Source of the DNA: an uncultured delta proteobacterium
GTDB taxonomy: Bacteria > Desulfobacterota > Syntrophia > Syntrophales > UBA2192
DNA: 64,000 nt
Assembly: GCA_963810965.1 (NCBI GenBank)
Contig: CAWEPT010000016.1
Span: 5,051 to 69,050, forward strand
Direction: 5' to 3'
Shown here: piece by piece, positions 20,203 to 31,475 of the stretch
Numbering within the stretch: position 1 is the stretch's first letter
Layout: the number at the start of each line of letters is the position of its first letter
Position numbers and translations under genes: made by a program
The notes under the pieces: model-generated
The model's input: the letters and a program-made list of their open reading frames with translations, nothing else
The model's database searches: none
What the model was told of the DNA's origin: nothing

Positions 20203-22119
20203 GAAGTTCTTGAAGTCCTTGTCGTCCAGCGGGATGACGGACTCGGGATTTAGCCGTCCTGGCTCCGGTATCGGCCTTTTTCCCGAAGCCCTTGAAGGAG
20301 AGGACTTTCTTCAGTACCGCCTTCGGCGGTGCCGCGGAGACCGATGCCGAAGCCCTGGTCTCGTGATTGCCGCCCACCATTGTCATGAGCTCTGCGGCAA
20401 TTTCCTTCATCTGCTCGGCCTGGGCGTTCATCTCCTCGGAGGCCGAGGCGCGACTCCTCGGCATTGGCCGCCGTCTGCTGGGTCACCTTGTCCATCTCGG
20501 CGACGGCCTTGTTGATCTGGTCGATTCCCTGGGCCTGCTCGCTGGAGGCCGCGGCGATCTCGGACACGAGATCGGCCACCTTGGCGGCGCTCTTCGAGAC
20601 CTCCGCGAAGGCCCCGTTGGTCCGCTCGACCAGCTCCGAGCCCTCCTTGACCTTCTTCACGGTGCCCTCGATGAGCGCCGAGGTGTTCTTGGCGGCCTCG
20701 GCGGCCCGCATGGCGAGGTTTCTCACCTCGTTGGCCACCACGGCAAAGCCCGCACCGGCCTCGCCGGCTCTGGCCGCTTCGACGGCGGCGTTGAGGGCCA
20801 GCAGGTTTGTCTGGAAGGCGATCTCGTCGATCGTCTTGATGATCTTGGAGGTCTCGTCGCTGGCCTTCGAGATGTCGTCCATGGATTTGGTCAGCTCGGT
20901 CATGGAGCCATTGGCCCGCTCGACCATCTGTTTGGATTCTTTCATGAGCTTGTCGGCCGTCGATGCGTTGTCGGCGTTCTGCTTGGTCATCGAGGACATC
21001 TCCTCGAGGGACGAGGAGGTCTCCTCGATCGAGGCGGCCTGCTCGGAGGCCCCTTCGGCCAGCGACTGGCTTGCCGAGGACACCTGGCCCGAGGCGGAAG
21101 CGACCTGGTCGGCCGCGTCGTTGAGGTGCCTGACGGAGCGTGGTGACGGGCACCGTGATGCTCCGGGAGAAGAAGGTGACGGCGACGATCGTCAGCGCCA
21201 GGAAGATGGCGCCGATGAGCGAGGATGACATTGCGGATCATGTGGGCCGAGGAGAGGAACTCATGCTTCATCCTGTGTCATGGCGACGCTCCAAGTCGTG
21301 TAGTCGACGGGGGCAAAGCCCGCGATCTTCTTCACGCCCTGGTACGTATAGAATTCTACGCCTGAGTCTGCGGGCGATCATCTTGCCGGCGATATCCTTC
21401 ATGCCCTCGAGGTTGGTGACATTGAGCTCGAGGATGTACTCCTTTTTGGGGTGGGCGACGAAGAGGCCGCTTTTGTCGATCATCCAGGCAAAGCCCGTCT
21501 GCTCCGACCTTGACGGACTGGATCTTGCTCGGAGAGAAAATCGACGTTGAGGATGGCACCCACCATGCCTGCGAATTCGCCGCCCTGGCCATAGACCGGA
21601 GCGCTGACGACCGAAACGGGTTTTCCCGACGCCCGGGACTTGATCGCGGCGCCGATGAAGACCTTGCCGCTCTTGGCTTCTTTGAAGTAGTCGCGGTCTC
21701 CGACGGCGATGCCTTTTGTCTTCCCGTTGCTGCCGTCGGCAATGATCGTGCCGCCGGCATCGGCCACGAAGACGGACTCGTAATCGCTCCCGCTCTGTTT
21801 CATCACTTTCGCGAATTCCGCCGAAAGCCGCTCGAGTCTCGCCGGAAGCCTTGGCCGCGCCGTCCTTGGATGATTTCGAAGCCGCCTCAATGACATAGGG
21901 CTGAACCGACAGTGCGAGGCGACCTTCATCTCTTCTTTGATGGCGACTTCGATCATGTCGGAGATGTTCTTGGCGATCTGCACGGCCTGTCCCTTGGCCA
22001 TGTCCTCCAGAGCCCCTGTCGCCTTGATAGAGGGCGAAGCCCCCGACGACCACGATCGGGATCAAAACGAGCAGGATCCCGCCGAACGTTAATTTGAAAC
22101 CGAGAGTTTTCTTCTTCAT
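20203..22119 (-). pseudogene. methyl-accepting chemotaxis protein with periplasmic Cache-like sensor, about eleven frame changes
   Basis: N-terminus MKKKTLGFKLTFGGILLVLIPIVVVGGFALYQ. Sensor region SGSDYESVFVADAGGTIIADG...VGDRDYFKEAKSGKVFIGAAIKSRASGKPVSVVSAPV. TM2 [19 protein letters not shown]. Signalling hairpin [38 protein letters not shown]. Tail ...VIPLDDKDFKNF. The pieces are spread over seven track ORFs. Confidence 0.7.
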
Positions 22120-26883: not shown

Positions 26884-27265
26884 ATCAAGATCTCCCTTCA
26901 TGGTTTAATGGCCTTGTCGATGTGACGCCGCAGAGGGTCTCCGCGAGCGCCCGTCCGCCCGTTTCGGGGAGGAGGGGCCGCAGGCCCGGCCGAGGGGGTG
27001 GAGCGGCGAGGCCTGCGGCATGAGGGCGTTCTCTTTGTTCGCGGCGTTCGGATGTCCCTTAGATCAAGGCTTGTGCCATGCAGGAGAAAAGGCGAAATAA
27101 AGTCTTTAATAAGCTGAAATAAAATGAAGATATGAGAACGTGAGTCCGGGCGGGAAAGGACGCTCTACAGGTAAAATATGACTACATATATGTTATATTA
27201 TTAATTAATATCTACAAATATGTATAAATATATAATATATGAAACGATCATGAATCGATGTAATC

Positions 27266-27309
27266 AAAAAAGGGCGGCAACTCTCATTGCCGCCCTTCCT
27301 GTTTTTTTT
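27266..27309. terminator. bidirectional rho-independent terminator
   Basis: A-run, stem GGGCGGCAA / TTGCCGCCC, then TTCCTGTTTTTTTT. It serves the minus-strand synthase gene. Confidence 0.75.
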
Positions 27310-27398
27310 GATATCACATCTCTTGAGATACTGTGTTCAGATTGTCCGTATCGCCCGAACCCACCCTGAAGCCTGATGCCCGCAGGCGCCTGCGCCTG

Positions 27399-29288
27399 CT
27401 AGAACCAGTGGTCCGACTTCTTCTTCGCCTCGTACTCCGCCTTCAGGGCGCGCTCGGTGGCCTCGGAGATGAGGTCGACACTCTTGGTCCACTCCTCGAA
27501 GCGGATGTCGACGCCGAAGACCCCCCGGATTTCATCATGCTCGTCGACAATGGGCGCCGAGACGGTGATGCAGAGGGCCCCTGTCATCTTGGAGATGTAG
27601 AAGTCCGTCACGTGGATCTTCCCGGCCTCCATGGGCCGGATGAACCACTCGCGGTTCGAGTAGTCCGTGCCGACGCCGAAGTTCTCGTACTTCGCGCGGT
27701 CCGTGATGTGGGTGATGTTGCGCGTGATCTTTTTGCCGTGCGTGTCGACGACGTAGGCGAACTGGATCGAGGGGTTCTCGTCGATGAACTGCTGCATGAT
27801 CGGCTCCTGCATCTCCGGGTTCATCGCCTTCATGACGGGGTGGTCGATGACCTGCTGCACGACCGCAACGGCGGCCTGGGCCGCGCGGTACTTGATCTTC
27901 TCGAGATCGGACATGAAGAGCTCGGGGAGGAACTTGCGGACGACCTTCTCCATCTCGTCGTTGGAGATGCTCGTCATGCGGCCCCCCTCGTACTGCTTCA
28001 TGACCCACTTGTGGATCGCCGAGATGCCGGGGTGGCGCTTGTCGATGAGCTCCCCGTTCTTGAGGTCGAGCCGGGAGTTGATCCAGTGGACGATTCCCGC
28101 CTTGCCCGACTTGTCGGTGATCTCGAGCATGATGGGGCGTTTCAGGATCTTCGTCGTGTCGAAGATGTTGTAGATCTCCTCGTTCTTCACGAGACCGTCG
28201 AGGTGCACACCCGCCCGGGTGACGTTGAACTCGGAGCCGACAAAGGGGTAGTTGGGGGCGATCTTGAAGTTCATCTCGCGCCGGACGTAGTCGGCGATCT
28301 CCGTGATCACCGTGGTGTCGATCCCGTGGTTTTCGCCGTGAAGCTGGATGTACTCGAAGATGAGGCCCTCGACGGGCGGGTTTCCCGTGCGCTCGCCGAT
28401 GCCCATCAGGGTGCCGTTGGCGCCGCTGCAGCCATAGAGCCACGCCGTCGTGGCATTGATCAGGGCCTTGTGGAAATCGTTGTGGCCGTGCCACTCGAGC
28501 AGGTGCCCGGGGACCCCCGCGTCCTCGATGAAGGCCCGGACGATCTTGTCCACGCTTCGGGGCAGGGCCGCACCGGGATAGGTGATCCCGTAGCCCATGG
28601 TGTCGCAGAGGCGGATCTTGACGTCGATGCCGCTCTGCTCGCGCAGTTTCATCAGCTCGATGGCAAAGGGGATCGCGAACCCGTAGATGTCCGCCCGGGT
28701 GAGATCCTCGAAATGGCACCGGGCGACGATACCCGCCTCGAGGATGGAGCGCACCACGTCGAGATACATCTCCATGGCCTGCTTGCGTGTGACGCCCAGC
28801 TTGAGGAAGATGTGATAGTCCGACACCGACGTGAGGATGCCCGTCTCCTTGAGGCCCATCTCCTTGACCAGGGGGACGTCCTCCTTGACGGCGCGGATCC
28901 AGCCGGTGATTTCCGGGTAGCGCAGGTTCTGGCTGCGGCAGGCCTCGAGGGCTTCGCGGTCGCGCTGGCTGTACAGGAAGAACTCCGTCTGGCGGATCAC
29001 GCCCTTCTCGCCGCCGAGCCGGCTCATCATCTTGAACAGGTCGGCGATCTGCTTGGCCGTGTAGGGCGGCCTGGCCTGCTGGCCGTCCCGGAAGGTCGTG
29101 TCGGTGATGAAGATGTCCTCGGCGGGGCTCATCATGACGAGCTTGTGATCGAAGACGATGCGGCAGACCTCGTCGTAGGGGAAGACGTCTTTCTGGAGGT
29201 TCGGCTGATCGACGTCCTTCACTTCATAGCGCCAGAATTTCGTGTGCTCGTGATCGAGGACCTTCTTTTCCTTGTTCCACTTTGCCAT
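27399..29288 (-). CDS. HMGL-like (DRE-TIM) Claisen-condensing synthase of the homocitrate/isopropylmalate/Re-citrate synthase family, with a C-terminal Cache/PDC-like domain
   Basis: GGGAGAAG RBS and ATG at 29288 (MAKWNKEKKV). FITDTTFRDGQQ, HFEDLTRAD, EWHGHNDFHKALIN, GIGERTGN. C-terminal DYSNREWFIRPMEAGKIHVTDFYISKMTGALCITVSAPIVDEHDEIRGVFGVDIRF is a typical Cache core. Confidence 0.75.
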   Translation of the reverse strand: MAKWNKEKKVLDHEHTKFWRYEVKDVDQPNLQKDVFPYDEVCRIVFDHKLVMMSPAEDIFITDTTFRDGQQARPPYTAKQIADLFKMMSRLGGEKGVIRQTEFFLYSQRDREALEACRSQNLRYPEITGWIRAVKEDVPLVKEMGLKETGILTSVSDYHIFLKLGVTRKQAMEMYLDVVRSILEAGIVARCHFEDLTRADIYGFAIPFAIELMKLREQSGIDVKIRLCDTMGYGITYPGAALPRSVDKIVRAFIEDAGVPGHLLEWHGHNDFHKALINATTAWLYGCSGANGTLMGIGERTGNPPVEGLIFEYIQLHGENHGIDTTVITEIADYVRREMNFKIAPNYPFVGSEFNVTRAGVHLDGLVKNEEIYNIFDTTKILKRPIMLEITDKSGKAGIVHWINSRLDLKNGELIDKRHPGISAIHKWVMKQYEGGRMTSISNDEMEKVVRKFLPELFMSDLEKIKYRAAQAAVAVVQQVIDHPVMKAMNPEMQEPIMQQFIDENPSIQFAYVVDTHGKKITRNITHITDRAKYENFGVGTDYSNREWFIRPMEAGKIHVTDFYISKMTGALCITVSAPIVDEHDEIRGVFGVDIRFEEWTKSVDLISEATERALKAEYEAKKKSDHWF

Positions 29289-29363
29289 GTTGCTTCTCCC
29301 TGCACCTGCGTTGAGTGTGTGGATGGATCGGCCGGGCGGCTTTCGACTGCCCGGTCCCGGTGA

Positions 29364-29400
29364 AATAAAAAAGGGAGGAAACGCTTTGATGTTCCCTCCC
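29364..29400 (-). terminator. terminator-like hairpin inside the aspS-synthase spacer
   Basis: Minus strand GGGAGGGAAC...GTTTCCTCCC followed by TTTTTTATTT. It lies 310 nt after the aspS stop and ~75 nt before the synthase ATG. Confidence 0.5.
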
Positions 29401-29709
29401 TGTCTCTTCCCTATCGAAATTGGATTCAACCAGTCATGGAGGGACCACCCCGGGCCGGAGAGATCGTAGGCTGCGGTTCAGCGGCCTTCAGGCATGCCGG
29501 ATCCGGCCTCATTTCAAACCGACGGTTGATGTTCCCGATCTGCACCACGGTGGAATGCCTTCCTTTTTCGCTGTTCCCTCCCCGGTTTCCGGTGAAGGCT
29601 ACCGGGGGAGAAGAACTTCACTGATTCCTTAAAGAATCATCCCGCCTTTGTCAATAGGTAAAAAGAATGTACACGGCTTCGGGCTCGACATGCCGGCCCG
29701 GTCTCCGCT

Positions 29710-31475
29710 TCACTGGACGATCTTCAGCGAGAGCTCCATGAGCTGCTCGATGCTCACCTTCGAGGGCGCATCGGTCATTGCATCGGTTGCCTTCTGCGTC
29801 TTCGGGAAGGCGATGACGTCCCGGATCGACGGGGCGCCCGTCATGATCATGATCAGGCGGTCAAAGCCGAAGGCGATGCCGCCGTGCGGCGGCGTTCCGT
29901 ACTCGAGGGCGTCGAGCAGGAACCCGAACTTGCTGCGCGAATCTTCCGCACTCATCCCCAGTGTCTGGAAGAGCTTCTGCTGGACCTCGGTGCGGTGGAT
30001 CCGGATGCTGCCGCCGCCGATCTCGGTCCCGTTCAGCACCAGGTCGTAGGCCCGGGCACGCGCCTTCGCGGGGTCTGAGTCGAGAAGCGGGAGGTCTTCG
30101 GCCACAGGCGACGTGAAGGGGTGATGCTTGGCCACGAAGCGCTTTTCCGTGTCGCTGTACTCCAGCAGCGGAAACTCGACGACCCATGTGAAGGCAAGCT
30201 GGTCGGGTTGGATCAGGTTGAGCTTTCTGGCCACGTGGATGCGCAGGTTCGCCAGGGCGTCGTTGACGATCCCGGGGTTGTCGGCCACAAAGACGATGAG
30301 GTCGCCCTCGCGGGCTTCCATCGCCTTGTTGATGGTCTGAACCTCTTCGGGCTTGAGGAACTTCACGATGGGCGAGGTCCAGCCGTCGGCGTTCACGCGG
30401 GCCCAGGCAAGGCCCTTGGCGCCGTAATCGGAGACGAAGTTCGTCAGGCCGTCGATGTCCTTGCGGGAAAGCTGCCGGTTGTCCTCGATGCGGATGGCCT
30501 TGACGATGCCGCCGCTTGCGGCCACCTCGTTGAACACCTTGAAGCCGCAGTCCTTCACGATCTCCGTCACGTCGCGGAGCTCCATGGCGAAGCGGGTGTC
30601 GGGGTTGTCCCGGCCGTAGCGCTCCATGGCGTCCTGGTAGGTGATCCGCGGGAAGGGGGTCTTGAGCTCCCGGCCCGTCCCGGCCTTGAAGATGTGGGCC
30701 ATGAGGCCTTCCATGGTCGCGATGATGTCCTCTTCGTTGATGAAGGACATCTCCACGTCGATCTGGGTGAACTCGGGCTGGCGGTCGGCCCGCAGGTCTT
30801 CGTCACGGAAACACTTGACGATCTGGAAATAGCGGTCAAAGCCCGAAATCATCAGGAGCTGCTTGAACGTCTGCGGCGACTGGGGAAGCGCATAGAACGT
30901 GCCCTGGTTGACGCGGCTGGGCACCAGGTAGTCGCGGGCGCCCTCGGGCGTGCTCTTCGCGAGCATGGGCGTCTCCACCTCGATGAATCCCTGCGAGTTG
31001 AAGTACTCCCGCGTCGCGGCGGCCACGCGGCTCCTCAGGATGATGTTGCGCTGCAGCTCCGGCCTGCGCAAATCGAGGTAGCGGTACTTGAGCCGGATGT
31101 TTTCCGAGATCTCCACGTCGGCATCGAGCACGAAGGGGGGTGTTTTCGCCTCGCTGAGGATGTCGAGCGTATTGACCAGCACCTCGATCTCGCCGGTGGG
31201 CAGCTCGGGGTTTTCCATCCCTTCGGGCGTTTGCGCACCGTTCCCTTCAGGGCCAGGACGTATTCGCTGCGGATGCGATGGGCCTCCCGGTGGGAATCGG
31301 CATGGGCCTCCGGGTTGAAGACGACCTGAACGATGCCTTCGCGGTCGCGCAGGTCGACGAAGATGACCCCGCCGTGGTCGCGGCGGCGATGCACCCAGCC
31401 CATCAGGACCACTTCTTTTCCTGCGTCGTCCGCCTTGAGGTGCCCGCAGTAATGGGTTCTTTTGATTTTCGATAT
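29710..31475 (-). CDS. aspS: aspartate--tRNA ligase; one frame change near 31215; no recognisable start codon
   Basis: ...[45 protein letters not shown] (ORF 31035..31625) joins ORF 29710..31218. [45 protein letters not shown]. The codon where Met is expected is ATA (31475-31473). Confidence 0.85.

Follow-up and report, generated by a model that had tools for sequence, protein, structure and literature searches.

A predicted long-form Re-citrate synthase of an uncultured Syntrophales bacterium with a C-terminal PDC/Cache module as candidate allosteric sensor

Many strict anaerobes, among them syntrophs, sulfate reducers and gut Desulfovibrionaceae, enter glutamate synthesis through Re-citrate synthase. 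The enzyme CKL_0973 of Clostridium kluyveri is said to have been characterised by Li et al. in 2007. The Syntrophus aciditrophicus enzyme, according to Kim et al. in 2013 (J Bacteriol 195:1689), is reportedly a homotetramer of 72.9-kDa tagged subunits which uses only acetyl-CoA and oxaloacetate. Other Claisen-condensing synthases are controlled by ligands of a C-terminal regulatory domain: leucine in LeuA, isoleucine in CimA and lysine in the homocitrate synthase of Sulfolobus, which carries a RAM domain.

A related gene is located in the window, i.e. the 64,000-nucleotide stretch of DNA analysed here, which derives from a 68% complete MAG of 1.5 Mb. The first-pass annotation had placed it at 27399-29288. 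These limits proved right, and the strand, left unstated there, is the minus strand, with an ATG start at 29288 and a TAG stop at 27399-27401 (Table 1). The plus strand of the same interval also holds an open frame, but its reading is meaningless and was rejected. A TTG codon at 29429 would open a 676-aa ORF. It was rejected as start because homologs begin at the Met of MAKWN... and have a length of 629 aa. All motifs quoted in the first-pass annotation are present in the translated protein. TTFRDGQQ occupies residues 64-71, HGHNDFH residues 267-273 and GERTGN residues 298-303, followed in the tail by DYSNREWF (542-549), TDFYISKMTGALCITVSAPIVDE (561-583) and DEIRGVFGVDIRF (585-597).

Table 1. 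Features of the synthase gene and its product. Residue conservation was counted in 64 long forms.
Feature	Position in the window (nt)	Strand	Basis and remarks
Predicted long-form Re-citrate synthase gene, complete	27399..29288	(-)	translation, motif positions; 629 aa + TAG stop, 72.1 kDa
GGGAG ribosome-binding site	29296..29300	(-)	sequence reading; 7 nt 5' of ATG
HMGL-like / DRE-TIM catalytic barrel, residues 60-335	28284..29111	(-)	Pfam PF00682, E 1e-29; contains TTFRDGQQ, HGHNDFH, GERTGN
Post-barrel helical subdomain, residues 336-456	27921..28283	(-)	faint HCS_D2 match; end point of short-form enzymes including C. kluyveri CKL_0973
Cytoplasmic (predicted) single PDC/Cache module, residues 457-604	27477..27920	(-)	PF22673, AF2 domain model, Foldseek, VIA
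C-terminal helical tail, residues 605-629 (...AEYEAKKKSDHWF)	27402..27476	(-)	confined to Syntrophales-type subgroup
R546 = PctA R126 = KinD R131 (residue mutated in 4jgq)			conserved 94%
W548 = PctA W128			conserved 100%
F549 = PctA Y129			conserved 98%
Y564 = PctA Y144			81% Y, 11% F
S566 = PctA D146			conserved 100%
D594 = PctA D173			conserved 100%
T541 = PctA Y121			variable

The immediate neighbours code for a UvrD helicase, a porin-like protein, AspRS and ComEC and are functionally unrelated to the synthase gene. A 420-nt spacer at 29289-29709 separates it from aspS. An Rfam scan of 27000-30000, which includes this upstream spacer, detected no riboswitch or leader family; the sole match was an sRNA at chance level (E 0.34). 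A second Cache-type gene is located about 5 kb from the synthase at 21268-22119 on the minus strand. Its ORF 21480-22001 matches dCache_1 with 55 bits, and the remainder lies in an overlapping ORF of another frame. It looks like a sensor gene broken by a frameshift. The profile of the Re-citrate synthase tail matched this gene weakly (E 0.0014).

The catalytic part of the protein was identified by several comparisons. Membership among the DRE-TIM Claisen enzymes, and within them in the Re-citrate synthase family, had been proposed from the motifs and is borne out by the HMGL-like Pfam match and by the similarity to SYN_02536 of S. aciditrophicus. In Foldseek comparisons, the barrel resembled the catalytic domains of homocitrate, isopropylmalate and citramalate synthases with E values of 1e-24 to 1e-16. 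The residues of TTFRDGQQ, HGHNDFH and GERTGN were invariant in 12 fused homologs. A homolog search retrieved over 8000 clusters of related sequences. Among them, the best 120, mainly from Syntrophales and other 'Deltaproteobacteria', were almost all 629 aa long and had an identical architecture of three Pfam matches. The closest named genomes by identity were a Syntrophales MAG (96%) and an uncultured Syntrophus sp. (73%). A phylogeny, which the first-pass annotation had named as a check, was calculated for the catalytic region with FastTree (106 rows). It placed the query inside a Syntrophales clade with 100% support, including the uncultured Syntrophus sp., and far from the CimA of the same MAG; no grouping with LeuA/CimA was observed.

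Direct comparison with SYN_02536 was made over a single tail piece of 77 residues, obtained from a machine-read supplement text with dropouts (PMC12016533). It aligned to query residues 491-568 with 57 of 78 positions identical (73%). By sequence, the gene is the predicted ortholog of the characterised S. aciditrophicus Re-citrate synthase, and its annotation as a predicted Re-citrate synthase (EC 2.3.3.3) of the long form is supported.

The C-terminal region was assigned to the PDC/Cache fold by profile and by structure. Pfam MCP-like_PDC_1 (PF22673) matched residues 496-599 with 57.8 bits (cut-off 27). The dCache_1 model, which comprises two modules, remained just under its cut-off (43.1 versus 45), as expected since the tail is a single module. 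AlphaFold2 (AF2) models had a pLDDT of 88.8 for the full-length protein and 87 for the tail domain alone. The tail model consists of a long N-terminal helix and a beta-sheet core with the pocket residues R546, W548, F549, Y564, S566, T569, T575 and D594. Foldseek retrieved the KinD sensor domain first (E 1e-8), followed by Tlp3, Mlp37 and YkuI, which is cytoplasmic; 158 matches had E<=1e-3. VIA-align yielded Z scores of 16.4 for WalK, 16.2 for KinD and 14.6 each for Tlp3 and citrate-bound CitA, followed by DctB; the CitA superposition had an rmsd of 2.5 over 125 residues. Nothing other than PDC/Cache sensor domains was comparable in either search. The tail is a single PDC module equivalent to the membrane-distal half of dCache_1. 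Thus the C-terminal Cache/PDC core recognised in the first-pass annotation stands, and the profile and model checks it had suggested gave a PDC fold and not a LeuA-type regulatory domain. Pfam returned no LeuA_dimer, RAM or ACT match on the synthase protein. The last residues, 605-629, are gapped in up to 57 of 64 fused homologs, are found in SYN_02536 and were modelled with a pLDDT of 44-58.

Cache domains are typically extracytoplasmic and placed between membrane helices. This domain sits behind a cytoplasmic enzyme instead. The domain combination is considered real and the protein is predicted to be cytoplasmic, because of the Pfam matches and because a hydrophobic membrane-spanning segment is missing (highest 19-residue Kyte-Doolittle mean 1.38). 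A signal peptide was not detected in the synthase protein either.

The distribution of the enzyme was studied in the host phylum, Thermodesulfobacteriota, in which 159 of 301 sampled genomes and 137 of 259 high-quality genomes had strong matches. Nearly all of the phylum matches listed reach residue 602 or further; about five end near residue 460. Long forms occur, among others, in named genomes of Syntrophales, Smithella, Syntrophorhabdus, Desulfobacterales, Desulfomonilales, Thermodesulfobacteria, Desulfovibrio, Bilophila and Mailhella, and beyond this phylum in Nitrospirota, Omnitrophota, Elusimicrobiota, Lentisphaerota, Spirochaetota and Armatimonadota. The Cache fusion is the standard form of the enzyme in Thermodesulfobacteriota. 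Short forms of ~440-476 aa, aligned to query residues 17-460, were found in Planctomycetota (anammox bacteria) and Bacillota. In the tree, a short-form clade is nested among the long forms, and the strongly supported branches alone require at least five domain gains or losses. The PDC domain has therefore been gained or lost several times.

The first-pass annotation had implied that the fusion was new. This did not hold, since both the characterised SYN_02536 and enzymes across the whole phylum possess it. It had also listed the S. aciditrophicus and C. kluyveri enzymes as plain family members. The family was correct, but SYN_02536 already bears the Cache tail. The fusion represents the usual long form of an enzyme already known, to which this gene adds one more member.

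More distant relatives with other terminal modules in place of the PDC tail were also observed. Two proteins (P0170 and P0206) end in an ACT domain and one (P0144) in an ATP-grasp/L-amino-acid-ligase domain. Another, P0126, has an N-terminal response-regulator receiver and no PDC tail; its sister in the tree is a PDC-bearing protein from Auribacterota.

For the analysis of the pocket, a tail profile was built from 33 diverse tails, and conservation was counted in 64 long forms with tails down to 24% identical to the query. The profile matched Tlp3 (2e-10), KinD (2e-9), PctA (5e-8), PctC, PctB, Mlp24 and Mlp37 before other Cache sensors. In the AA_motif of amino-acid sensors, Y121, R126 and W128 contact the ligand's carboxyl group, and Y144 and D173 the amino group; in PctA numbering, the R126A exchange weakens binding and D173A abolishes it (Gumerov et al., PMC8915833). 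The tail retains four of the five (R546, W548, Y564 and D594), with the same W-to-Y spacing as in PctA. Membership in dCache_1AA is defined by all five residues with the two halves 13-17 residues apart, and the tail falls outside this class with the variable T541 at the Y121 position. The partial match thus gives only a lead on the class of the putative ligand, not dCache_1AA membership. Two threonines of the pocket, T569 and T575, are conserved to 97% and 98% in the 64 long forms.

Other features of the pocket resemble pyruvate-binding KinD. These are the ligand-binding arginine, the strand Y-x-S-[RK]-x-T-G and the invariant serine S566, in the place of which Tlp3 and PctA have an amino-group-contacting aspartate (D146 in PctA). 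The absence of Y121, phenylalanine at Y129 and serine at D146 thus make the pocket a hybrid, and it is far from certain that its ligand is an amino acid. Moreover, the uracil receptor 9hvj keeps equivalents of the tryptophan, tyrosine and aspartate. The positions W548, Y564 and D594 are therefore not specific to amino-acid ligands.

The metabolic context was examined in the MAG. A Si-citrate synthase (PF00285), already reported as absent from the window in the first-pass annotation, was found neither there nor in the 68%-complete MAG. Aconitase (921 bits) and NADP-isocitrate dehydrogenase (371 bits) are encoded side by side on contig 25. The dehydrogenase gene (L082 in G000, contig 25, 3181-4501) is read in two frames: the NCBIfam match ends at residue 259 and Pfam Iso_dh matches in two pieces. 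This split is probably an assembly frameshift, like that in leuC on contig 17.

The preferred reading is a Re-citrate synthase of the long form with the PDC/Cache module as allosteric sensor, and a probability of about 0.6 is assigned to it as a whole. Beside the observed architecture, fold, orthology to a characterised enzyme, pocket conservation and pathway context, we infer binding of a ligand, its identity and its effect on the enzyme. The enzyme would condense acetyl-CoA and oxaloacetate in a Syntrophales-like anaerobe devoid of the usual Si-citrate synthase. Citrate would then be converted by aconitase and NADP-isocitrate dehydrogenase into 2-oxoglutarate and further into glutamate, i.e. 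through the oxidative branch. The PDC module occupies the place where LeuA, CimA and homocitrate synthases have the regulatory domains that bind their end products. A small molecule bearing a carboxylate may bind to the pocket of R546, W548, Y564 and D594 and alter the catalytic activity. Built-in allosteric control had been suggested in the first-pass annotation and is a reasonable proposal. The likeliest ligand would be an alpha-amino acid, for example glutamate as end product of the pathway. The alternative would be a keto-, di- or tricarboxylate, for instance 2-oxoglutarate, pyruvate or citrate. In its most specific version, the Cache module is a sensor for glutamate or another amino acid, derived from the dCache_1AA pocket of chemoreceptors, and gives end-product feedback inhibition of Re-citrate synthase. 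This version is possible, but is put forward tentatively. A literature search yielded nothing that links Re-citrate synthase or HMGL enzymes to Cache domains.

The module may instead bind the enzyme's substrate oxaloacetate, its product citrate or one of the central keto acids pyruvate and 2-oxoglutarate, and thereby exert product inhibition or feed-forward control without an amino acid being involved. Pyruvate-bound KinD is among the closest relatives and shares with the tail the arginine (R131 = R546) and the common strand. Citrate-bound CitA and succinate-binding DctB are also near in structure, and S566 stands in for the amino-group-contacting aspartate of the amino-acid sensors. However, KinD has neither the tryptophan nor the D173-equivalent aspartate, both of which are fully conserved in the long-form tails, and the tail profile ranks the amino-acid sensors Tlp3, PctA/B/C and Mlp24/37 over the carboxylate sensors. 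On this evidence, the carboxylate alternative appears doubtful.

A function without any small-molecule ligand is unlikely. The PDC domain would then be a structural or oligomerisation module, for instance for building a homotetramer of the S. aciditrophicus type. The C. kluyveri-type short forms work without the domain; it is therefore dispensable for catalysis and could serve oligomerisation instead. Such short forms are widespread, one of them characterised and active, and the nesting of unfused clades among fused ones indicates that the domain was repeatedly lost while the enzyme was retained. The tail also evolves faster than the catalytic part, with a median identity to the query of 47% versus 62% among the 64 fused homologs. 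On the other side, the invariant residues (R546, W548, S566, T569 and D594) correspond to those that line the ligand pockets of PctA, Tlp3 and KinD and not to surface patches. Furthermore, relatives exchange classic ligand- or signal-binding modules, ACT and receiver domains, at their termini, a theme of regulatory modules into which the sensor reading fits.

It is very improbable that the protein makes homocitrate, citramalate or isopropylmalate instead of citrate and that its regulatory domain is an unusual one of such a synthase. In NCBIfam and the PDB, the protein is most similar to NifV/HCS/LeuA models, and most relatives bear the JGI name 'isopropylmalate/homocitrate/citramalate synthase' (some 'citrate (Re)-synthase'). 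However, all LeuA/CimA/NifV/HCS models score at least 4-fold under their cut-offs (<=132 bits versus 413-950; best score 132 bits, cut-off 463), a true CimA is encoded separately in the MAG, adjoining leuC (725 bits, cut-off 450), the tree places the query with the Syntrophus-type clade far from that CimA, and the tail segment shares 73% identity with the SYN_02536 piece read from the supplement. An assignment to LeuA, CimA or NifV was thus rejected on NCBIfam scores and tree position.

NCBIfam has no model for the family of long-form Re-citrate synthases. Many long-form homologs are named 'histone-lysine N-methyltransferase' by NCBI (P0008, P0018, P0029, P0058 and others) and one 'triose-phosphate isomerase'. 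The methyltransferase label on long-form Re-citrate synthases is an evident, propagated misannotation.

The question of the ligand of the Cache module and its effect concerns the whole long-form family rather than a single gene. In most Re-citrate synthases, a conserved ligand-pocket domain has escaped notice. Finding the ligand would explain how the entry of carbon into the oxidative branch of the tricarboxylic acid (TCA) cycle is controlled and would show Cache domains acting inside the cell as enzyme regulators. If the module were a glutamate sensor, it would be the first Cache domain documented as the allosteric regulatory domain of an enzyme in central metabolism. It would also represent a fourth independent solution for feedback in DRE-TIM Claisen synthases, after the LeuA, RAM and ACT domains.

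Among the known systems, SYN_02536 is the closest. In the supplement text, which is machine-read and incomplete, it is a long form like the query, with a MAKWN... start and an end of the type ...KSDHW[FL] (...KSDHWL in SYN_02536), and the PDC motifs DREWF, TDFYISKMTGALC and GVDIR are present in both proteins (PMC12016533). The query originates from a different, uncultured Syntrophales lineage. Its calculated mass of 72.1 kDa fits the 72.9-kDa tagged subunit reported for the S. aciditrophicus enzyme. The short forms, including CKL_0973 and those of Bacillota and Planctomycetota, belong to the same catalytic family with the same motifs and are ~51-61% identical over residues 17-460. Unlike the query, they terminate around residue 456-460 and lack a PDC domain. 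In the same supplement text (PMC12016533), CKL_0973 ends right after a conserved PE, which corresponds to query residues 455-456.

The membrane-distal PDC domains of KinD (pyruvate, 4jgo/4jgp), Tlp3 (4xmq) and PctA (5ltx) have the fold of the query tail and its pocket framework R-x-W-[FY] ... Y ... G-x-D. In contrast to these, the query domain is predicted to be soluble and cytoplasmic, consists of a single module without flanking membrane helices and is attached to an enzyme, where the others belong to a kinase or chemoreceptor. The tail also lacks Y121 of the AA_motif and has serine in place of D146. The top PDB match of the query is SaHCS with its RAM domain removed. In LeuA, CimA and the Sulfolobus homocitrate synthase, the regulatory domain is positioned after the barrel and helical subdomain, as is the PDC module of the query. 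The folds of these LeuA, CimA and RAM regulatory domains are unrelated to PDC, whereas the logic presumably in common would be feedback by the end product at the first committed Claisen step.
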